From: Clostridia bacterium
GTDB taxonomy: Bacteria > Bacillota > Clostridia > Acetivibrionales > UBA4821
Direction of reading: 5' to 3'
Assembly (NCBI GenBank): GCA_041685035.1
Contig: JAWLGL010000001.1
Coordinates: 1 to 27,758 of the forward strand
DNA: 27,758 nt
The notes under the pieces were generated by a model. That model searched no databases. It saw only the letters and a program-made list of their open reading frames with translations, and had not been told where the DNA came from. The position numbers were made by a program, and so were the translations under genes. Numbering within the stretch: the stretch's first letter is position 1; each line of letters begins with the position of its first letter. Below are positions 1 to 9,792 of this stretch, piece by piece.

Positions 1-26
1 AAACAATAAGAAAGGAAGAAATAACC

Positions 27-710
27 TTGAGTAGAAAGCAGCAGGCGTCAATATTAATATGCATACTTACAGCAATAATATCTATAGCAATCTATGTATG
101 TCCGACACCCATAACAACGCTTTCACGTTATGGTTCGAGAGGGGATGAAGTTATCAATATTCAAGTCAAGCTGAAGAGATGGGGATATTACAAGGGTTCA
201 GTAGATGGAATATACGGATACCTCACATACACAGCTGTAAAGTGGTTTCAGGCAAGAAATGGACTCAGAATTGATGGAATTGCTGGACCTGAGACATTAA
301 GAGCGCTAGGACTGCCAACAGGTGAACCTGCAGCAGCAACAAGGACAGGTGCTGCGGTTTCAAGAAATGTCAATCTCCTTGCCCATGCCATACATGGAGA
401 GGCAAGAGGGGAGCCCTATCAGGGCAAGGTAGCAATTGCTGCAGTAATACTCAATAGGGTGGAGGACCCCAGGTTTCCAAAGACAATTGCAGGTGTAATA
501 TACCAGCCGGGAGCATTTACTGCCGTAGCGGACGGACAGATAAACCTTGACCCGGACACCAGTGCATATAATGCAGCAAGGGATGCTTTAAACGGCTGGG
601 ACCCGACTGGTGGATGCGTATATTATTTTAACCCTGCGACTGCAACCAGCAGATGGATATGGTCGCGTCCTATTGTGACTGTAATCGGGAAGCATTACTT
701 TGCGAAATAA
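27..710 (+). CDS. sleB: Spore cortex-lytic enzyme (PG-binding domain + Hydrolase_2 domain)
   Basis: N-terminal signal/TM. PG-binding motif (VDGIYG..T..AVKWFQ..NGL.IDGIAGPETL). Catalytic domain with LLAHAIHGEARGEPYQGKVAIAAVILNRV and IYQPGAF. TTG start with AAGGAAG upstream. Confidence 0.93.
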   Translation: MSRKQQASILICILTAIISIAIYVCPTPITTLSRYGSRGDEVINIQVKLKRWGYYKGSVDGIYGYLTYTAVKWFQARNGLRIDGIAGPETLRALGLPTGEPAAATRTGAAVSRNVNLLAHAIHGEARGEPYQGKVAIAAVILNRVEDPRFPKTIAGVIYQPGAFTAVADGQINLDPDTSAYNAARDALNGWDPTGGCVYYFNPATATSRWIWSRPIVTVIGKHYFAK

Positions 711-752
711 TAACGGATGAAATTATCACAGGATAACTGCACCTTAAAAATG

Positions 753-963
753 AGCTATTTGCGTTGTAAAAGTAATTCTTCGTAGAAATCCAGCATGTCA
801 TTGCGAGGCTGAAAGCCGTGGCAATCTAAGGTTTTATAGATTCCCACGTCGCTTTGCTCCTCGGAATGACACTGGTAATGCGATACAGTTTTCTGGGGGG
901 AAATATTTTTAACCCTTTCTAAATCCCTTATCTTTCAACGGGTTTAAAACATCGCAAATAGCT
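753..963. mobile_element. Candidate MITE-like non-autonomous element (~211 bp, no ORF)
   Basis: Terminal inverted repeats AGCTATTTGCGTTGT (753-767) and ACATCGCAAATAGCT (949-963) match at 14/15. TTAAAAA lies on both flanks (744-750, 964-970). It contains a palindromic core. Confidence 0.4.
797..870. repeat. REP-like nested palindrome GTCATTGCGAGG...GTGGCAATCT...AGATTCCCAC...CCTCGGAATGAC
   Basis: Outer arms GTCATTGCGAGG / CCTCGGAATGAC pair 11/12. Inner arms GTGGCAATCT / AGATTCCCAC pair 9/10. Confidence 0.75.
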
Positions 964-977
964 TTAAAAAATAGGTA

Positions 978-1006
978 TTAACATAAACCTCAACGTGTGA
1001 TATAAT
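978..1006 (+). promoter_or_regulatory. Sigma-A promoter (extended -10) for the GGDEF gene
   Basis: TTAACA (978-983), 17-nt spacer, TG-A-TATAAT (998-1006). Confidence 0.7.
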
Positions 1007-1029
1007 TTTGAATATATACTCTATAAAAA

Positions 1030-1127
1030 AATATTTTTTTAGTCCCGATAAGCAATTTAGCGGGCCGGCTGATTCGGTATGTATACCGGTTTAATTTACA
1101 GCCGGCTTTTTATTTTGGGCTAAAAGA
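1030..1127 (+). promoter_or_regulatory. Structured 5' leader / attenuator-like element, copy 1
   Basis: AATATTTTTTTAGTCC, then stem GCCGGCTG/CAGCCGGC (1064-1071/1099-1106) with an apical hairpin, then TTTTTATTTT-GGGC. Outer stem 1035-1045/1117-1127. Homologous to 6286-6403. Confidence 0.6.
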
Positions 1128-1166
1128 TTTTAATATATTTACTCCAATAAACAGGAGGGACGTCAA

Positions 1167-1805
1167 ATGCAAGAGATGCTTTTCGGCTTAGTCTTTGGTT
1201 TAATAGCTGTAATAGTCTTTATGTTGTGCCGACTTCATAGTTTGAAGGGAGAAAACGTTGAATTAAGACAGCATGCATTTACAGATGACTTGACCGGGTT
1301 AAAGAATCAAAGATACTACAATGAGTTTTTTTTAAAGGAAGTTAATTTTGCAAGAAGATATAATCTCCCCGTTTCAATTATCCTTATCGATTTAAACAAT
1401 TTCAAAACCGTTAATGACAAATACGGTCACGCAAAAGGAGATGACTATCTGAAGGAAGTTGCAAGAATTCTTAGAAGAACAGCCAAACGTGCAGAGGACC
1501 ATGTAATCAGGTACGGTGGTGATGAATTCGTCATAATCTTACCTGGAGCTGAGCCTAAGGATGCCGAGCGGATAGCTCAGAGGATAAAGACTGGAGTTAC
1601 ATCAATAAATCAACAACTGGGGCTGCAGATAGAGACTTCTGCTAGTGCAGGGGTAGCAGGACGGACAATATGGAGGTATGACAAGAGAATTACAAGCGAA
1701 TCGGAGGCGGAGAGCCTCTTTAACGAGGCAGATGCTTTAATGTACAAACAGAAGGAAGCGGCTAGGAAGGAGCGGCTTGAGAGTGGAACAGAAAACCAGG
1801 GGTAA
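1167..1805 (+). CDS. Membrane-anchored diguanylate cyclase (GGDEF domain)
   Basis: N-terminal TM helix, AFTDDLTGLKN, IDLNNFKTVNDKYGHAKGD, intact RYGGDEF, RxxD (RAED) I-site five residues upstream, ADALMY. AGGAGG RBS. Confidence 0.92.
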   Translation: MQEMLFGLVFGLIAVIVFMLCRLHSLKGENVELRQHAFTDDLTGLKNQRYYNEFFLKEVNFARRYNLPVSIILIDLNNFKTVNDKYGHAKGDDYLKEVARILRRTAKRAEDHVIRYGGDEFVIILPGAEPKDAERIAQRIKTGVTSINQQLGLQIETSASAGVAGRTIWRYDKRITSESEAESLFNEADALMYKQKEAARKERLESGTENQG

Positions 1806-1821
1806 CCCTGGTTCTTTTTTT
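1794..1821 (+). terminator. Intrinsic terminator overlapping the GGDEF stop codon
   Basis: AACCAGGG-GTAA-CCCTGGTT followed by CTTTTTTT. Confidence 0.8.
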
Positions 1822-1879
1822 ATATGTTTTTTCGACAGAATAATTTTAATTTAAGAATTGAAACATTTACAATTTGTAT

Positions 1880-2815
1880 CTAAATTAATGATTTTACACT
1901 CTGAACTATATCCAGAGCAGACAGGTTGAAGTGCTTAACCAACTCACCTGGCTTACCTGATTTTCCGAACAAATCCCTGACACCGACCATTGCCATAGGA
2001 ACAGGGCAGCATCTTGCAGTTACACCGGCCACTGCCTCTCCAAGGCCACCAATGATTGAGTGCTCCTCCGCTGTGACAATTCTGCCCGTATCTCTGGCTG
2101 CAGCTATGATTGCCTCTTGGTCAACAGGCTTAATGGTATGCATATTGAGAACCCGTGCACTGATACCTTCCTTTTCCAGAAGAACTCTGGCTTCCAAGGC
2201 TTCATGAACCATAAACCCTGCAGCGATAATGGTGACGTCCTTTCCATCTGCAAGCTGGACAGCTTTACCAAGCTCAAATCTATAACCCGTCATATCCTTA
2301 TATATGTACGGCACGGCAAGACGGCCCAATCTTAAGTACACAGGCCCCTGGTGCATAAGAGATGCTTTAACAGCTTCCTGGGTTTCAATACCGTCAGCCG
2401 GACAAATTACAGTCATGCCGGGAAGAGAACGCATAAGGGCAACATCTTCAATGGATTGGTGTGAACCGCCGTCTTCACCGACAGTAATTCCAGCGTGAGT
2501 AGCGCCGATTTTTACATTAAGTCCGGGGTAGGCAATAGAGTTTCTTACCTGGTCAAAAGCCCTTCCGGCAGCAAATACGGCAAATGTGCTTACAAAAGGA
2601 ATTTTACCACAGGATGCAAGTCCTGCAGCAACAGCCGCCATGTTTGATTCGGCTATTCCCATATTAAAAAACCTGTCGGGATATTTTTCCGCAAACTTAC
2701 TTGTATAAGTGCTCTTGCTGAGGTCAGCATCAAGCACCACCATCTCCGGATACCTGTCACCCAGTTGTGCCAGTGTCATACCGTATGCTTCGCGTGTTGC
2801 AACCTTGTCTGACAT
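1880..2815 (-). CDS. tkt: Transketolase, C-terminal (pyrimidine-binding) subunit
   Basis: ATREAYG..L, VVLDADLSKST, FFNMGIAE, THAGITVGEDGGSHQ, EEHSIIGGLG. Start reassigned to the ATG at 2815 with GGAGG RBS. Confidence 0.92.
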   Translation of the reverse strand: MSDKVATREAYGMTLAQLGDRYPEMVVLDADLSKSTYTSKFAEKYPDRFFNMGIAESNMAAVAAGLASCGKIPFVSTFAVFAAGRAFDQVRNSIAYPGLNVKIGATHAGITVGEDGGSHQSIEDVALMRSLPGMTVICPADGIETQEAVKASLMHQGPVYLRLGRLAVPYIYKDMTGYRFELGKAVQLADGKDVTIIAAGFMVHEALEARVLLEKEGISARVLNMHTIKPVDQEAIIAAARDTGRIVTAEEHSIIGGLGEAVAGVTARCCPVPMAMVGVRDLFGKSGKPGELVKHFNLSALDIVQSVKSLI

Positions 2816-2816
2816 A

Positions 2817-3653
2817 TTATCTATCCTCCAATCTTGATGAAAGTTCACTGATTGCCTGCTTGTACTGCTCCTGGTTCGGCGCCTTCCCATGCCAGCCGCC
2901 GATACCTTCCATAAACGATACTCCTTTGCCCTTCACCGTTTCACAGATTATGACAGTTGGCTTCCCCTGTACTTTCACGGCTTCATCCAGTGCCGATATA
3001 ATCTGTCCATGTTCATGTCCGTCAATTGAAATGATATTCCAGCCAAATGCCCTGAATTTTTCATCCACCGGTTCAGGGGACATGACCTCATGTACAGGGC
3101 CGTCAATCTGAAGCCTATTATGATCAAGAAATGCAGTTATATTGTCAAGCTTATAGTGAGAAGCAGACATGGCAGCCTCCCAAATCTGTCCTTCTTCAAT
3201 TTCACCGTCACCCATCAGGACATAAACCCTGTAATCTTTTTTATCAAGCTTCCCTGCCAGAGCCATCCCGACAGCTGCCGACAAGCCTTGGCCAAGGGAG
3301 CCTGTAGACATATCTACACCCCGCACCTTTTTCATATCCGGATGCCCCTGAAGGAAACTGTCAATCTGCCTGAATTTCTTTAATTCATCAACAGGGAAGA
3401 ATCCTTTGATTGCAAGGGCTGAATACAGAGCCGGCGAGCAGTGGCCTTTTGAAAGGACGAACCTATCTCTGTCTTCCCACGCAGGGTTTTCAGGTTCAAC
3501 CTTCATGGCATGAAAATATAGTACTGAGAGAATATCGGCGCATGACAGGGAGCCGCCCGGGTGTCCCGACTGAGCATGGAAGACCGCATCGAGAATACCT
3601 ATTCGTATTCTGGTTGAGATATCTTTCAGTGATTTTAAGTCTATAGTGTTCAT
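2817..3653 (-). CDS. tkt: Transketolase, N-terminal (TPP-binding) subunit
   Basis: SGHPGGSLS, DRFVLSKGH, LQGHP, STGSLGQG, GDGEIEEGQIWEA, TVKGKGVSFME. Start reassigned to the ATG at 3653 with AAAGGAG RBS. Confidence 0.93.
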   Translation of the reverse strand: MNTIDLKSLKDISTRIRIGILDAVFHAQSGHPGGSLSCADILSVLYFHAMKVEPENPAWEDRDRFVLSKGHCSPALYSALAIKGFFPVDELKKFRQIDSFLQGHPDMKKVRGVDMSTGSLGQGLSAAVGMALAGKLDKKDYRVYVLMGDGEIEEGQIWEAAMSASHYKLDNITAFLDHNRLQIDGPVHEVMSPEPVDEKFRAFGWNIISIDGHEHGQIISALDEAVKVQGKPTVIICETVKGKGVSFMEGIGGWHGKAPNQEQYKQAISELSSRLEDR

Positions 3654-3770
3654 ATGTACTCCTTTCAAGGCTTTGTAATATATTTCATAACAATGTAGTT
3701 AGAAACAAATTCAGTATTCCGCACTGAATATAGTATATACTCTTTTATCAGGTTATTTCAACAGATTTGC

Positions 3771-3799
3771 AGGGAAAAAGAAACCCCTCAGATGAGGGG
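3771..3799 (-). terminator. Intrinsic terminator after the AbrB paralog
   Basis: Minus strand CCCCTCA-TC-TGAGGGG followed by TTTCTTTTT. Confidence 0.65.
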
Positions 3800-3806
3800 G
3801 ATAAGG

Positions 3807-4061
3807 TTAAACCGATTCAGATTTGTTAAAGACGGCATTAGAGCAATCCTTGCATACCATCTTTCCCTTGAATGATTTTATATCATTGGTATTGCCGCAA
3901 AAAATACAACTCAGCTCATACTTCTTCAAGATGATGTAATTCCCATCAACATAGATTTCAAGGGCATCCTTTTCATCAATGCCCATAGAGCGGCGCAGTT
4001 CTATGGGAAGCACAACCCGCCCGAGGCTGTCGATTCTTCTGACTATTCCTGTTGATTTCAT
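3807..4061 (-). CDS. AbrB/MazE/SpoVT-family transcription regulator (second AbrB paralog)
   Basis: MKSTGIVRRIDSLGRVVLPIELRR, C-terminal CIFC...CKDC. 51/79 identical to the AbrB at 9250-9489 by manual alignment. AGGAGG RBS. Confidence 0.92.
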   Translation of the reverse strand: MKSTGIVRRIDSLGRVVLPIELRRSMGIDEKDALEIYVDGNYIILKKYELSCIFCGNTNDIKSFKGKMVCKDCSNAVFNKSESV

Positions 4062-4213
4062 GATTTACATCCTCCTTTTTAATATTATCCGGCCAGACCA
4101 TATAGAGACTGACTGATTCATCTCCCCGTTGTATTGTATATCTTGGGGTACGTCCACCGTTACCTGATAAGGTCCGGTCCAATTATGATTTCACACGAAG
4201 TATATTTGGTTTA

Positions 4214-4242
4214 AGTATATCTACATGACCAAGAGATTTCAA
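4214..4242 (-). promoter_or_regulatory. Sigma-A promoter for the AbrB paralog
   Basis: Minus strand TTGAAA, 17 nt, TATACT. Confidence 0.7.
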
Positions 4243-4245
4243 GGG

Positions 4246-5886
4246 TTATTTTACCTTAACTCCCAATATCTCCTGACCGCGGGTGCCGACTACAACCATA
4301 TTATTGTATACTGCCGGAGAACCTTCAACGTTTGCCCTGACATTAATCCTATCCAGAATTTTTCCGGTAGTTCCCTCTATAAGATACATACTACCACCCG
4401 AGTCGCAGAAAATTATATAGCTCTTTCCTTCAGGGGTATAGATGTCAACAGGTGAGCTCCAGGAATACCTGTCAAAGGTCAGTTCCCAGACTGTTTCCCC
4501 GGATTCCTTGTCAAATGCGGTCAGCCGGCCTCCATTTTGTTTATAGCTTTTTGCAATGTTGAAGATTACAAGGTGCTCGATATCATTTTTTCCTAAAACC
4601 GGTGTGCCTAAAACGCCTCCGTTTGTCTGGCTGTATCGGCACTTAAAACTTCTTTCCCAGAGAGTTTCACCCGTAAGGGCATTAAGCTTACGAATATACG
4701 ATAAGCCGTCAGCCCCCCGCCTGTCTACTTCGCAGGCGGTATAAAGGGAAACCTTGTTATCCTTTTCATCGATAACTATGGTGCTGTCAGTATCATCGGT
4801 TACATCCCTTACCCACACAGGCGAGAGTGTGTTTAAGTCCAGACACTGAAGGACACCGTCGTTATCTGCAAAATAAGCGTAATTTCTGTATACGGCAGGG
4901 GAGTTTTCAATACCCATCTTTCGGCTTTTTGAAGTATGATACCGGTACCTGGTTATTTCAGGGCTGATGCTAAGCTCATTTTTTGCCGGCTCATAGCGGC
5001 TGTTAAGCCTGGCAGTGTACACCAATCCATTTTCTCCGGCCACGACAAGTGTATCAGTCTTTGCATGGACCAGTGCAGTCGAATCGAAAGCCCCCCATCT
5101 CTTCAATGCGAACGAGTCGATACCATTGATGAAATGAAGCCTTTTCTGGTCCAGAAGGCTGTATATGCTGTAGCCAATGGGTACTCTCTTGCCTCCCACG
5201 GTGTTGATTCCCTGGCCTACATACAAAAGGGGATAGCCTCTCGGATCTACGGTTACACTACCCTTTATGGGACCCGAAGTTTTAATGGGTCTTCTCGTGG
5301 GCGTGCCTGTATCCAGGTCAAGAAAGTGAACTTTTCCGTCAAGCGCTCCGTAGATTACTTCCTTAAGCCCGGCCTTGTTTTTTTTGTACTCAAATATGTT
5401 CATACCGGCTTTGACTTCTTCATCCCATCTGACTATAGCGGGTTGGCCGTTCCACCCTACACCGGTCCATGTATCTATATATCCTATGCTGTGGCTCCAC
5501 ACGGGCTCAAGCTTCTCTGATTGTATGTCGGCAGTTCCGAAACTTGCTGAATCCCTATAATTATTGCCTCTGAAGCAGGTTACGCCGTTGACCTGAGAGT
5601 ACTCTGAAGGCTTTCCGTACAAGATGTCAGAAAATCCTTTGAATGTCCGGGAGGTTTGTCCACGGCTCTGAACCAGCCAGTTGAATCCAAATTGTTCGGG
5701 ACGGTTGGGTGCAGGAACCTCCATGGTATTGACAGGAGTGATATCTAACCTGTTTTGAGCTGGAGTAGTGCCCATAATAGTTAACCCTTCCCGGAGTACG
5801 AATAGTCCGCTCATTCCGATGAAGGATATGGTGCCTATAGCTGCAAGCCAGAATATGAATGTACTGAAGAATTTATCTGTCCGCAT
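4246..5886 (-). CDS. Membrane-anchored PQQ-like/BamB-type beta-propeller repeat protein
   Basis: N-terminal TM. Repeated blade motifs (GKVHFLDLDTG, GVLQCLDLNTLSPVW, GRLTAFDKESGETVW, GSMYLIEGTTG, SSPV/GSPAV). GGAGG RBS. Confidence 0.75.
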   Translation of the reverse strand: MRTDKFFSTFIFWLAAIGTISFIGMSGLFVLREGLTIMGTTPAQNRLDITPVNTMEVPAPNRPEQFGFNWLVQSRGQTSRTFKGFSDILYGKPSEYSQVNGVTCFRGNNYRDSASFGTADIQSEKLEPVWSHSIGYIDTWTGVGWNGQPAIVRWDEEVKAGMNIFEYKKNKAGLKEVIYGALDGKVHFLDLDTGTPTRRPIKTSGPIKGSVTVDPRGYPLLYVGQGINTVGGKRVPIGYSIYSLLDQKRLHFINGIDSFALKRWGAFDSTALVHAKTDTLVVAGENGLVYTARLNSRYEPAKNELSISPEITRYRYHTSKSRKMGIENSPAVYRNYAYFADNDGVLQCLDLNTLSPVWVRDVTDDTDSTIVIDEKDNKVSLYTACEVDRRGADGLSYIRKLNALTGETLWERSFKCRYSQTNGGVLGTPVLGKNDIEHLVIFNIAKSYKQNGGRLTAFDKESGETVWELTFDRYSWSSPVDIYTPEGKSYIIFCDSGGSMYLIEGTTGKILDRINVRANVEGSPAVYNNMVVVGTRGQEILGVKVK

Positions 5887-6046
5887 TTATATCTATCCAG
5901 ACCTCCGAGAGTTTTATGTATATTGACGGATTTTATAGTTTTTTAGTTCCATAATAATAAAACTATGTAGACGAATAATATAATAGCATAAGTACATCCT
6001 TTGATACAACGCACGCTGATTGGCCAGACCAAGAGCAGAAAATGCC

Positions 6047-6087
6047 GATTAAACCGGATGATTAAACCGGATGATTAAACCGATGAT
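6047..6087. repeat. Short tandem repeat, 13-bp unit GATTAAACCGGAT, about 3 copies
   Basis: Two perfect units (6047-6059, 6060-6072), a 12-bp third unit, then GAT. Confidence 0.85.
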
Positions 6088-6233
6088 ACCCAGTTAAACC
6101 ACAGAAAGAGGAACCAATGCTCATGTAAAATAAGGCAGAAAGTAATTGCGAACCATAATTAAGCTGTAAAGGGATTCTTAAGCTTAAACCTCAAAATTTT
6201 AACTAAAATTAACAAAATTAATCGCAATAAATA

Positions 6234-6262
6234 TTGATAAAATTCGACAATTTTAGTATAAT
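6234..6262 (+). promoter_or_regulatory. Sigma-A promoter for the HD gene with a Spo0A box in its spacer
   Basis: TTGATA (6234-6239), 17 nt, TATAAT (6257-6262). TTCGACA at 6243-6249. Confidence 0.7.
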
Positions 6263-6285
6263 TAAAGTATTGATTGAATAGTCAG

Positions 6286-6403
6286 AATATTTTTTAAGTC
6301 CAAAAATGTTTTTTTGGCTGGACGGCAGAGTTCATTATAAGAACTGGTGAGCTGCGCGGTACAGCCAAAATTTTTTATTTTTGGCAGAAGTTTAAAAAAA
6401 TGT
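6286..6403 (+). promoter_or_regulatory. Structured 5' leader / attenuator-like element, copy 2
   Basis: AATATTTTTTAAGTCC, then stem TTTTGGCTG/CAGCCAAAA (6312-6320/6362-6370) with an apical hairpin, then TTTTTTATTTTTGGC. Outer stem CCAAAAAT/ATTTTTGG and TTTTTTAA/TTAAAAAA. Homologous to 1030-1127. Confidence 0.6.
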
Positions 6404-6425
6404 CGTAGAAAAGGAGAGAAATTAA

Positions 6426-7517
6426 ATGCTATTACAGAAAAAAATGGAAGTAAAAAACCAAGGACAAACAGGTTCATACGAAGATTTCACCAAATATCAT
6501 GCGGTAATAAAAAAATCTACCCTTTATAGAAAACTCGAAGGCAAACCGCAGATAGTAGATCCAGAGCTAAACAACCGAAAGGACCATACAAAGCGTTGTA
6601 TTAAGGTTGGCCGCAAGATAGCCAGGAAACTAGGACTGAATGAATCGCTTGTTTCGGTAAGCTTGCGTGCTCATGACTTAGGTCATGCGGCATTCGGACA
6701 TCCATCTGAATTTGTATACGAGTGGTTTCTACAGAAGTTCGCGGGTTATCCTGTACAGGTTGCATGTGCACACCACAATGTTCAGGGCGCATGGATGTTG
6801 TTTGTACATCTTAAAGACATCCCTGCAGTAGTTATCGATAGTGTGGCAAGCCACTCTGGATTGTACGAGTATAATCCAGTAGACAGCGAGAAAAGCCTGA
6901 CCATTGAAACATGGCTATCCTCTGCATGCCAAACACCCTGCTCCTATGAAGGAGTTGCAACAAAGTATGCCGACAAAATTTCAAACGCCATAACAGACAT
7001 CATTGAAGCAAGAACGGCTGGTTTTGACGTATCGGAAATTTGGCATATCTTTGAAAAATTTGGAACAGAGGAAAAATTAGAGGATTTCCTGGTAGATGGA
7101 TTGGTACTGGACGCAGGTGGAATCTGGATGAAAGAAGAACAGTACAGGGTACTGAAAGCACTTCAGGCCTTTACTTATTCTTCAAAGGTACACAAGGCAC
7201 CCTGGCTTGTCAAGATTCGCCGCGGACTGAAGCGGGACATGGCAAGAGCCTTAGTAGCCGTGTACTACCTGTTGGAACAGAAAAACTTCACCAGGTACAA
7301 TAATACCAGAGCTGGAAGGATTGTAGAAGAATTTATGGAAAAAAGAGACAAGAATTATCCTTCAGACGTGCAAATTTGCAATAAAGTACGGGCAAAAGAC
7401 ATAGTAACGTACCTGGACGATGAGGATGTTAGAAAAATGCTTTCCAGTGTGCATGAAATTGCGGCTGGGAATAAAGAATTAGCGAAACTTTTAAACAGCA
7501 TACCTGCATTTGCATAA
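6426..7517 (+). CDS. Divergent dNTP triphosphohydrolase (dGTPase-like) HD-domain protein
   Basis: YRKLEGKPQI (cf. FRRLxxKTQV), H54, AHDLGHAAFGHPSE (cf. HDLGHTPFGHAGE), HHNVQG, EG..KYADKIS. AAGGAG RBS. Confidence 0.8.
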   Translation: MLLQKKMEVKNQGQTGSYEDFTKYHAVIKKSTLYRKLEGKPQIVDPELNNRKDHTKRCIKVGRKIARKLGLNESLVSVSLRAHDLGHAAFGHPSEFVYEWFLQKFAGYPVQVACAHHNVQGAWMLFVHLKDIPAVVIDSVASHSGLYEYNPVDSEKSLTIETWLSSACQTPCSYEGVATKYADKISNAITDIIEARTAGFDVSEIWHIFEKFGTEEKLEDFLVDGLVLDAGGIWMKEEQYRVLKALQAFTYSSKVHKAPWLVKIRRGLKRDMARALVAVYYLLEQKNFTRYNNTRAGRIVEEFMEKRDKNYPSDVQICNKVRAKDIVTYLDDEDVRKMLSSVHEIAAGNKELAKLLNSIPAFA

Positions 7518-7539
7518 GGGCGAAAGCCCTTTCTTTTTT
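7516..7539 (+). terminator. Intrinsic terminator overlapping the HD gene stop codon
   Basis: AAGGGC-GAAA-GCCCTT followed by TCTTTTTT. Confidence 0.85.
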
Positions 7540-7606
7540 GTTCTAGTTGACATATATCGTTATGCTGTGGTAAATATACATTAGGACAATAATAAGGAGT
7601 ACAGAG

Positions 7607-8344
7607 ATGACAGGTCTGCTCAAGCCAGGTGAACGCATAGACGATTTACAATACAAAGGACTTCGCATAATCCAGAACCCCAAAGGGTTCTGTTTTGGTA
7701 TTGATGCTGTACTGCTGGCTGGCTTTGCCCGGATAAGAAAGGGCTGGAAGGCTGCAGACCTTGGCTGCGGTACAGGTATAATATCTATACTCCTTGCCGG
7801 TAAAACTGAAGCCTCACACATTACCGGAATAGAGATTCAACCTGAGGCAGCAGAGATGGCTGATAGAAGCGTAAGGCTAAATGGTATTGATGACAGGGTC
7901 AGGATAATCAATGCAGACCTGAAAGAAGCGGCCTCTGTACTTGGGGCATCATCAGTGGATGCAGTAGTTACAAATCCCCCATACAGAACCAAAGGCTGTG
8001 GCATAGTCAATCCTGATGATGCCAAGGCTGCAGCCCGTCATGAGATATTGTGCTCCCTGGAAGACATTATAAAGGTGTCCAGAGCTGTTTTAAAACATGG
8101 GGGCACCCTGTTCATGGTGCACCGTCCTGACAGGCTTGTGGATATAATTTCCGGTCTGAGAAGCAGCGGCATGGAGCCAAAGAGGATGAGATTTGTACAT
8201 CCCCATAAGGACAAGCCGCCTGTGCTGGTCCTCATAGAAGCGCTTAAAGGGGGAAAACCATACATGAAGGTAGAGAAGCCGCTTATTATCTATGAAGAAA
8301 ACAAGTATACCGAAGAAGTAATGCTGATATATTACGGGGGATGA
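7607..8344 (+). CDS. yabB: tRNA1(Val) (adenine37-N6)-methyltransferase (YabB/TrmN6 family)
   Basis: FCFGIDAVLLAGFA, DLGCGTGII, GIEIQ, TNPPY, ARHEI, VHRPDRL. Adjacent to rsmI. Confidence 0.9.
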   Translation: MTGLLKPGERIDDLQYKGLRIIQNPKGFCFGIDAVLLAGFARIRKGWKAADLGCGTGIISILLAGKTEASHITGIEIQPEAAEMADRSVRLNGIDDRVRIINADLKEAASVLGASSVDAVVTNPPYRTKGCGIVNPDDAKAAARHEILCSLEDIIKVSRAVLKHGGTLFMVHRPDRLVDIISGLRSSGMEPKRMRFVHPHKDKPPVLVLIEALKGGKPYMKVEKPLIIYEENKYTEEVMLIYYGG

Positions 8345-8348
8345 TAAT

Positions 8349-9206
8349 ATGACAGACAAAGGAATTTTATATATGGTAGCTACACCTATAGGCAACCTTG
8401 AAGATATAACCCTCAGGGCCATAAGGGTACTGAAGGAGGTTGACCTTATAGCGGCAGAAGATACCCGGCAGACTCTGAAACTGTTGAATCACCTCGGTAT
8501 TTCCAAGCCTTTGACAAGCTATTTCAGGCACAACGAGACCAGGAAAGGCCAATACATAATAAACAAGCTTCTTGAAGGTCAAAGCATTGCGCTGGTTTCA
8601 GATGCTGGTACACCCGGGATTTCCGACCCAGGGGAGGAACTGGTTCAGCAGGCAATACAGAATGATATAAAGATTTCACCCATACCCGGGGCCTCAGCAG
8701 CCATCTCCGGCCTTATAGTGTCCGGCCTCCCTACCGGAAGGTTTGTCTTTGAAGGATTCCTTCCCATGAATAAGCGTGCCAGGCGGGAGAAGCTTGAAAA
8801 CCTTAGGAAAGAGGAAAGAACCATAATTTTTTACGAAGCGCCGCACAAGCTGGTATATTCCCTTAGAAACATATTAGAGATTCTGGGTGACAGAAATATT
8901 GTACTGGCAAGGGAGCTTACAAAGATGTATGAAGAGGTTATCAGAACTACCGTATCTGAAGCTATAGAGAAGTATAGAGAAAGAGCCCCCAAAGGTGAAT
9001 TTGTATTATTGGTTCAAGGACAGGAGAAAGGTGAGGAGCCCGGGGAGACTGGCATTGAATGGGAGGGCCTGACTGTCGAGGACCATGTTAAAGCATTCAT
9101 AAATCTTGGTATGAGCAGGAAAGATGCAATAAAGCAGGCGGCATCAGATAGGAATATCAACAAAAGAGAATTATACAAAATGCTTATAAAAAGCAATAAA
9201 CCGTGA
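8349..9206 (+). CDS. rsmI: 16S rRNA (cytidine1402-2'-O)-methyltransferase
   Basis: LYMVATPIGNLEDIT, AAEDTR, SDAGTPGISDPG, FEGFLP, FYEAPH, RELTKMYEE, KGEFVL. Confidence 0.96.
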   Translation: MTDKGILYMVATPIGNLEDITLRAIRVLKEVDLIAAEDTRQTLKLLNHLGISKPLTSYFRHNETRKGQYIINKLLEGQSIALVSDAGTPGISDPGEELVQQAIQNDIKISPIPGASAAISGLIVSGLPTGRFVFEGFLPMNKRARREKLENLRKEERTIIFYEAPHKLVYSLRNILEILGDRNIVLARELTKMYEEVIRTTVSEAIEKYRERAPKGEFVLLVQGQEKGEEPGETGIEWEGLTVEDHVKAFINLGMSRKDAIKQAASDRNINKRELYKMLIKSNKP

Positions 9207-9234
9207 CAGGGAACGGTTCCCTGTCACGGTTTTT
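9198..9234. terminator. Bidirectional terminator between convergent rsmI and abrB
   Basis: Perfect 16-bp inverted repeat AAACCGTGACAGGGAA-CGG-TTCCCTGTCACGGTTT, followed by a T run. Confidence 0.85.
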
Positions 9235-9249
9235 AAACAATAATATTCC

Positions 9250-9489
9250 TTATGACTTCAGTTCTTTCATACATGAAGGACAGATATTTTTTCCTTTATA
9301 TACGGCAACATCCTTTGCATCGCCACAGAAAATACAGGCGGGCTCATATTTCTTCAAAATGATTGTTGCCCCGTCCACGTAAATTTCTAAAGCATCCTTT
9401 TCCGCTATGTCCAGTGTTCTTCTTAACTCGATAGGAAGTACGACTCTGCCCAGTTCGTCAACCTTTCTAACAATACCAGTTGATTTCAT
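9250..9489 (-). CDS. abrB: Transition-state regulator AbrB
   Basis: MKSTGIVRKVDELGRVVLPIELRRTLDI..., CIFC/CPSC tail. Canonical position next to rsmI. Start reassigned to the ATG at 9489 (AGGGGG RBS). Confidence 0.93.
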   Translation of the reverse strand: MKSTGIVRKVDELGRVVLPIELRRTLDIAEKDALEIYVDGATIILKKYEPACIFCGDAKDVAVYKGKNICPSCMKELKS

Positions 9490-9521
9490 GATATGTTTCC
9501 CCCTTAGATTGGTATACAATT

Positions 9522-9572
9522 TTCGACACGCTTTGCGATTCTTATAATAACATAAATGTAAATTATCGTCAA
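9522..9572 (-). promoter_or_regulatory. abrB sigma-A promoter with a Spo0A box just downstream of the start site
   Basis: Minus strand TTGACG (9572-9567), 17 nt, TATTAT (9549-9544). TGTCGAA at 9528-9522. Confidence 0.75.
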
Positions 9573-9698
9573 TAAAATGTTGGATAATTTGTGAGAAATA
9601 TATTGGCATTAATCCAAACATTTTGAAGAAAGAAAGAGCAGTATTTAGGTATTTCGTAATGTTTGACGGTGTACCTATCAGGTTTTCAGTCAACAATA

Positions 9699-9792
9699 TT
9701 CGACAGAACACACAATAAAACCAAGGGCTTACTATATGCATAAAGCATATTTTGTAGAATAAAAATCATAAAACATTCGACATAATTCGACA
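9699..9792. promoter_or_regulatory. Cluster of Spo0A (0A) boxes in the abrB-spmA divergent region
   Basis: TTCGACA at 9699-9705, 9776-9782 and 9786-9792. The last two form a tandem pair 3 bp apart. Confidence 0.75.

Follow-up and report, generated by a model that had tools for sequence, protein, structure and literature searches.

Two candidate leader attenuators, probably independent of each other, precede a GGDEF and an HD-domain gene in a family of uncultured Clostridia

Introduction

Lineage-restricted leader attenuators are common in Firmicutes, and many of them have no known effector. The DNA analyzed here (the window, 27,758 nucleotides from position 1 of contig JAWLGL010000001.1 of a Clostridia bacterium) contains two candidates for such leaders, one upstream of a GGDEF diguanylate cyclase gene (copy 1) and the other upstream of an HD-domain protein gene (copy 2), and it raises the question of whether the two are related. 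A preliminary description had read them as copies of one undescribed, covarying cis-regulatory RNA. A shared class, if true, would be notable as a link between c-di-GMP synthesis and (d)GTP hydrolysis through a new riboswitch-like RNA. From a comparison of orthologous leaders we consider it probable (roughly 0.6) that the window holds two independent leader attenuators, each restricted to the host family, and not one shared RNA class.

Results

Gene order and sampling

The source assembly is fragmented (2.0 Mb in 256 contigs, 41.5% G+C, 81% complete), and the host family, which belongs to the uncultured Clostridia, is known from only five species-level genomes. In the following, G000 denotes the window genome, G001 a sister species of the same genus, G002 and G004 members of a second genus (g2), and G003 a third genus. 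A metagenome scan added one further locus on a metagenome contig, L162, and a word-indexed homologue search with the HD protein retrieved nothing beyond the query itself. Together with G001-G004, which fall in the same small family, this contig makes five orthologous loci, and each leader was consequently compared in six orthologous copies (G000-G004 and L162) from about four lineages. The covariation support that such a sample can provide is thin, and the compensatory changes reported below should be interpreted accordingly.

The gene order that contains the leaders, i.e. cell-wall hydrolase, GGDEF, sugar-metabolism genes, beta-propeller protein, HD and methyltransferase, is kept in G001, G002, G003, G004 and L162, and thus in three genera. 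In the window the block occupies positions 1-9741 (SleB-like hydrolase, GGDEF, sugar-metabolism genes, beta-propeller, HD, TrmN-like methyltransferase, RsmI and AbrB-like), and its synteny with G001-G004 and L162 argues against the GGDEF and HD genes as recently inserted cassettes. Within the block, genus g2 has a phosphofructokinase in place of the split transketolase. A perfect 16-bp hairpin with T runs on either side (9198-9232) lies between the convergent rsmI and abrB-like genes, and is probably a bidirectional terminator.

The GGDEF leader

The features of the GGDEF leader and gene are as follows.

978..1006, plus strand: putative sigma-70-type promoter (TTAACA, 17 nt, extended TG and TATAAT; 11/12 match)
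1042..1066, plus strand: P1 hairpin (GUCCCG, loop 1048-1060, CGGGCC), candidate antiterminator
1063..1116, plus strand: predicted intrinsic terminator (stem 1063-1071 with 1099-1107, apical hairpin 1074-1089, U tract 1107-1116)
1117..1131, plus strand: 3' arm of the outer stem of copy 1 (GGGCUAAAAGAUUUU), pairing with 1034-1046
1167..1805, plus strand: GGDEF diguanylate cyclase gene, 212 aa (Pfam GGDEF 4e-38; TIGR00254 7e-43)

The -10 region of the promoter and the transcript start that we infer from it are conserved in G001. The encoded protein has a hydrophobic segment at its N terminus. P1, whose 5' strand GUCCCG is part of the AGTCC box described below, is present in all six orthologous leaders across the three genera, and its closing pairs (GUC... 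with ...GNC) are retained in every one of them. When the six sequences are aligned on P1, 77% of the cells are paired, as compared with 23-54% in a control in which the partner strand was slid, and two pairs display compensatory changes. In folds of partial transcripts P1 forms in the G001 and g2 leaders, but not in that of G000.

A terminator is found in five of the six GGDEF leaders (G003 is the one without), and a compensatory G:C to A:U change is seen in its stem in G001. The 3' strand of P1 overlaps the 5' strand of the terminator in 5/6 leaders, and in the window the two have four nucleotides in common (1063-1066). Shared by the GGDEF leaders is, in order, a U-rich stretch, (A/G/U)GUC, a hairpin, and G-N-C-R-R-Y-U-R.

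The G003 leader (L040:10262-10310, minus strand) keeps P1 and lacks the terminator, and the 3' strand of P1 (AGGGGC) is here the Shine-Dalgarno sequence itself, 12-13 nt before the start codon. Overlap of P1 with the ribosome binding site would give G003 the opposite regulatory sign. The arrangement as a whole would follow the common scheme in which an antiterminator is combined with exchangeable expression platforms, with a sign that differs in G003.

The HD leader

The corresponding features of the HD leader and gene are the following.

6234..6262, plus strand: putative sigma-70-type promoter (TTGATA, 17 nt, TATAAT; 11/12 match)
6300..6317, plus strand: H1, a small A/U hairpin (CCAAAAA, loop UGUU, UUUUUGG), candidate antiterminator
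6312..6384, plus strand: predicted terminator, a long imperfect hairpin (base 6312-6320 with 6362-6370, U tract 6371-6382)
6320-6325, plus strand: GGACGG box of the terminator
6329-6345, plus strand: apex of the terminator (AGUUC/GAACU)
6400..6418, plus strand: pre-RBS block (A-run, G(A/U)CGU) and RBS AAGGAGAG, delimited from alignments
6426..7517, plus strand: HD-domain protein gene, 363 aa (Pfam HD 1e-6)

This leader is conserved, although the HD proteins are only 29-32% identical. The promoter, its spacer and the first ~25 nt of the predicted transcript are conserved across genera. An equivalent of H1, as read from the sequences, lies directly 5' of the terminator in all six leaders, with its 3' strand extending 2-6 nt into the terminator base in each of them. 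Among the six, one pair of H1 switches from A:U to G:C, and wobble changes are seen several times; predicted folds show H1 to be weak beside the terminator. In the model-fitted alignment of the terminator 88% of the cells are paired (28-40% when slid), with compensatory changes at three pairs. The 5' strand of the terminator is conserved in sequence (GGACGR and AGUUC, the former invariant in 6/6 leaders), whereas the 3' strand drifts. Conservation of the 5' strand thus goes beyond the needs of pairing, which suggests that a second constraint acts on it. The stem base of copy 2 consists of four A:U pairs, which is less typical for an intrinsic terminator, and the HD leader of G004 has a weak U tract.

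TGAAT-like direct repeats follow directly after the -10 box of the HD promoter (window 6263-6290) and are conserved in the three genera. The pre-RBS block, which the three genera likewise conserve, reads AAGACGU in four of the six leaders, AUGUCGU in the window and AAGGAUGU in G002. The repeats and the 6400-6418 block may represent an operator or a translation-control site.

With respect to the gene product, the NCBIfam dGTPase models match the HD protein with E-values of 1e-12 to 1e-9, far under their cut-offs, and PDB entry 2dqb matches residues 28-112 (1e-10). Judged from these matches, the protein is only a distant relative of the dGTP triphosphohydrolases. The HD proteins of the other two genera (L039:3094-4311, minus; L040:2960-4237, minus; L162:7866-9080, plus) possess an N-terminal extension of ~50 residues that is missing from the window protein.

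Leader peptides were considered and rejected: each G000 leader contains one upstream open reading frame of 14 codons, and these lose their starts and frames in G001, G002 and G004. The one in the HD leader (6306-6350, ATG at 6306) crosses the conserved GGACGG box and lacks a Shine-Dalgarno sequence, and G001 has ATT in place of its start codon.

Features common to the two copies in the window

All six of the features on which the preliminary description had based the likeness of the two copies are present in the sequence. The window contains the 15/16 box AATATTTTTT(T/A)AGTCC twice, at 1030-1045 and 6286-6301, and nowhere else. In both copies AGTCC begins 35 nt past the -10 box, whose TATAAT has its last base at 1006 and 6262, respectively, and it is separated from the ATG by 126 and 129 nt. 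GGCTG/CAGCC stems and apical hairpins are found in both, as are the tails TTTTTATTTT(G/T)GGC.

Both leaders fold better than shuffled controls (z -2.7), and in both a stable G+C-containing hairpin is followed by a U tract, as in intrinsic terminators. A mutually exclusive alternative hairpin is conserved in each case (P1 overlaps the terminator in 5/6 GGDEF leaders, H1 in 6/6 HD leaders). By eye and by scan, we found no promoter downstream of either terminator. Each copy can consequently be described as a conserved, attenuator-like 5' leader in which an intrinsic-terminator hairpin is accompanied by a competing upstream hairpin, and to this extent the preliminary description is borne out. It had also failed to recognize a known riboswitch class, and our searches agree: at gathering threshold no Rfam 15 family, including the PyrR site, T-box, ykkC, mini-ykkC and thiS families, matched the window or the five orthologous loci, and at E <= 10 the regions around both leaders gave only spurious matches with E > 1.

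Is the likeness more than chance?

As a null distribution we used 117-nt regions anchored on the T tract at each of the 5151 hairpin plus T-tract sites in the assembly. Copies 1 and 2 are reciprocal best matches among these sites, with an alignment score of 26 as compared to 21-22 for the next best and a background of 10 +/- 2. Across the 234,881 pairs that strong AT-rich terminator regions form in the assembly, however, the noise tail halves per score unit, so that ~6 pairs of this quality are expected by chance. A sensitive BLAST search of the whole 2-Mb assembly returned the other copy as best or second-best non-self match (31 bits, E about 0.1), and several unrelated matches were recorded at 29.7 bits. 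With nhmmer, each leader retrieved only itself.

Searches for the individual parts gave a similarly mixed result. The exact 14-nt tail has no further occurrence in the assembly. A descriptor search for the shared stem GGCTG...CAGCC with its T-run gave four other sites in the assembly and several in each relative. In the genome_contigs collection, the 16-base core GGCTGGACGGCANAGTT gave chance matches only, in unrelated and mostly coding DNA, since the pattern is too short for 596 Gb. MAFFT does not put the stems of the two copies into the same columns. The covariation that the preliminary description had seen between the copies does not stand; the stems belong to different terminators that have a 5-bp block in common. 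From sequence statistics the pair is a borderline outlier, but not a decisive one, and with an E-value of about 0.1 chance is a reasonable but not comfortable explanation of the likeness.

Comparison of the two leaders across loci

Orthologues provide a more discriminating comparison. The local alignment score between HD and GGDEF leader is 26 in G000, but only 11 in G001, 9 in G002, 8 in G004 and 8 in L162, i.e. in the four other loci where both leaders have a terminator. Cross pairs between G000 and G001 score 13-14. It follows that the resemblance rests on states of both leaders that are specific to G000. In its sister species G001, the HD box is AAGACC and is accompanied by a 2-nt insertion, the HD tail is GGT, the GGDEF tail is GCC after loss of its GG, and GGCTG...CAGCC is missing from both leaders. 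The HD box is GGGTC in G003, and the HD leaders of g2 have nothing comparable.

Covariance models were built from the six HD leaders (R1) and from the GGDEF P1 hairpin (R2). R1 finds exactly one significant match per family genome (99-125 bits in the six loci) and R2 one copy per genome (39-53 bits). Applied to the other leader, the models perform at noise level. With filters off, the window GGDEF leader reaches 19.3 bits with R1 (E 0.34 per 55 kb), and the register does not agree with the real stems. The window HD leader reaches 11.5 bits with R2 (E 0.63 per 55 kb), which aligns it as AGUCC-loop-GGACGG, the best non-self match of this model in the window. R2 gave no match to the HD leaders of the other five loci, and cross matches of either model in these loci were absent except for one at E 8.

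Further copies were found neither in G000 nor in the family nor in 144 other genomes of the order, in which R1 had no significant match. R2 also gave weak matches in family and order (E 1e-4 to 0.02); these correspond to ordinary terminators or, in L210, fall within coding sequence. The preliminary description had itself named the lack of further genomic copies or covariation as the outcome that would speak against its proposal, and since this is what we observe, the idea of one shared family fails by its own criterion: the boxes are lost in orthologues, the likeness is confined to G000, and the two models detect each other's leaders only as noise.

A pairing of AGUCC with GGAC/GGCU was also proposed as the antiterminator of the HD leader. 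We rejected this candidate in preference to H1: the change to AGACC disrupts it in G001, and nothing equivalent is seen in g2. All HD leaders, and among the GGDEF leaders those of genus g2, carry a GACG-containing box on the 5' strand of the terminator, which could hint at a common factor.

The outer stem

Both copies had further been described as enclosed by an outer stem. We tested this by comparing the duplex energy of the two arms with that of dinucleotide shuffles of the 5' arm. Copy 1 nominally beats the shuffles (z -2.6), but copy 2 does not (z -0.56). Among the other GGDEF leaders the stem has a z of 0.07 in G001 and is absent in G002, G004 and L162, and with this lack of conservation it is probably fortuitous. 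In the HD leaders, z is -2.3 in G001, where indels in the two arms compensate each other, -1.05 in G004, -4.2 in G002 and -4.9 in L162, and the stem is absent in G003. The g2 leaders of G002 (L039:4326-4457, minus) and L162 (L162:7728-7851, plus) contain a 17-19-bp helix that joins the 5' end of the transcript to a segment past the U tract and thereby encloses the terminator, with a compensatory A:U to C:G change between them. The predicted terminator-enclosing helix thus appears to be real in the HD leaders of one genus and marginal in the genus of the window. Since the polymerase must pass the U tract before the 3' arm of this helix is transcribed, the helix cannot decide termination; if functional, the outer stem would act on the read-through RNA, through stability or processing.

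Discussion

We hypothesize that the two leaders act as separate attenuators. According to this hypothesis a transcript from a strong sigma-70 promoter would, in each leader, run into an intrinsic terminator ahead of the coding region. In predicted folds the terminators dominate and are far more stable than P1 or H1, so that premature termination would be the default state. In the GGDEF leader a stabilized P1 would weaken the base of the terminator and permit read-through; in the HD leader H1, which overlaps the base of the long terminator hairpin, is the candidate for the same role. Read-through would in both cases need some factor, be it a protein, a small molecule or an RNA.

That the leaders do not form one family is, in our judgment, very probable, and the similarity of copies 1 and 2 in their AGTCC box, GGCTG/CAGCC block and U-tract tail looks coincidental, as can arise between AT-rich leaders, with neither common descent nor a common motif behind it. 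The contrary explanation, one undescribed cis-regulatory RNA class defined by a shared 5' box, terminator and outer stem, in which a common signal, perhaps a guanine nucleotide, would co-regulate both enzymes, accounts well for the reciprocal best match among terminator-like regions genome-wide, for the identical register of both copies relative to the -10 box and the ATG, and for the R2 alignment of the window HD leader. However, it would predict that the likeness extends to the four other loci compared, where it is missing, and it is difficult to reconcile with boxes that mutate freely between sister species, with model cross matches that are at noise level and confined to G000, with an outer stem that is not conserved among GGDEF leaders, and with the lack of a third copy in the genomes searched. 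We therefore regard a shared class as improbable. The GACG box on the 5' strand of the terminator, in HD leaders and g2 GGDEF leaders alike, also counts in its favor and would permit a narrower variant, in which one factor or ligand reads both leaders through a G(N)CGR / GGACGR box whose pairing partner might be the GUC-containing 5' box. This variant, too, we hold to be improbable, if anything slightly more so; if true, it would place c-di-GMP synthesis and a dNTPase-like enzyme of this family of Clostridia under the joint control of a very small attenuator class.

A different question is whether the hairpins switch at all. They could set a constitutive low level of read-through, serve as 5' stabilizers or RNase III substrates, or release a short terminated RNA of ~100-115 nt that could act in trans. 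The far greater stability of the terminators relative to P1 and H1 is in line with such functions, as is the conservation of the first ~25 nt of the HD transcript, which resembles that of an sRNA seed, and an RNase III substrate could be recognized in the long nested helix, clearest in the g2 HD leaders (17-19 bp in G002 and L162) and echoed by the compensating arm indels in G001. However, this helix is weak in the HD leaders of G000 and G004, absent in that of G003 and absent from the GGDEF leaders outside G000; neither gene has a recognizable promoter of its own past the terminator; and the conservation of P1 and H1 beside the terminator fits alternative pairing better. Hairpins without conditional switching consequently appear to us unlikely, whereas an explanation at the DNA level, by a miniature mobile element or a folded recombination site ahead of the two genes, is highly improbable. 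The 5' box and the segment past the U tract do constitute an inverted repeat in both copies, but the arms are not conserved, no other copies of box or arms are present in the assembly, and no integrase or transposase gene is found among the genes scanned. Moreover, each genome has the leaders as single copies at orthologous positions, and the surrounding gene order is shared by three genera; the folded recombination site that the preliminary description had listed among its alternatives is thus unsupported.

With two independent attenuators as the preferred reading, what the locus still offers is modest, namely a pair of clean candidate cis-regulatory leaders, conserved and absent from Rfam, of which the HD leader has conserved sequence inside its terminator and, in one genus, a long enclosing helix as well. 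The pair also provides a worked example of how AT-rich terminator regions within one genome can resemble each other block by block, in a manner that is gone in the sister species.

Among known systems, the PyrR site (RF00515) is one point of comparison: the U-rich stretch and AGUCC of both copies and a possible AGUC:GGCU pairing resemble the beginning of the PyrR-binding loop with its consensus ARUCCAGAGAGGYU. Both copies nevertheless lack the CAGAGAGG core, no Rfam match to this family is obtained at E <= 10, and the genes are not pyrimidine genes. ANTAR targets consist of two tandem hairpins with hexaloops carrying A1 and G4, the second hairpin overlapping a terminator. This type was rejected for the present leaders: the P1 loop is 13 nt in G000, and no leader has a tandem hairpin pair. 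The inner loops in g2 are AAAAUU, AGAGUU and GUAUUC, of which AGAGUU (G004) alone shows A1 and G4. The c-di-GMP-I and c-di-GMP-II riboswitches often stand upstream of GGDEF genes and use terminator platforms, but neither matches the window or the five loci, at gathering score or at E <= 10, and the GGDEF leader is too short for them. The HMP-PP (thiS motif) riboswitch has its aptamer embedded in the terminator (PMC6478431), and the HD leader is similar to it in layout only, with conserved nucleotides within the terminator. The HD leader differs from it in having no Rfam match and a gene context unrelated to thiamin. The remaining comparison is with the classical terminator/antiterminator attenuators of Firmicutes, whose expression platforms are under the control of a riboswitch or a protein. 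The window leaders differ from these insofar as they have no recognizable sensor domain, with only ~50 nt before the terminator, and no Rfam match, but they share the strong promoter, a leader of ~100 nt, a terminator before the ribosome binding site, and an upstream hairpin that has nucleotides in common with the terminator (P1 with 1063-1071, H1 with 6312-6320).
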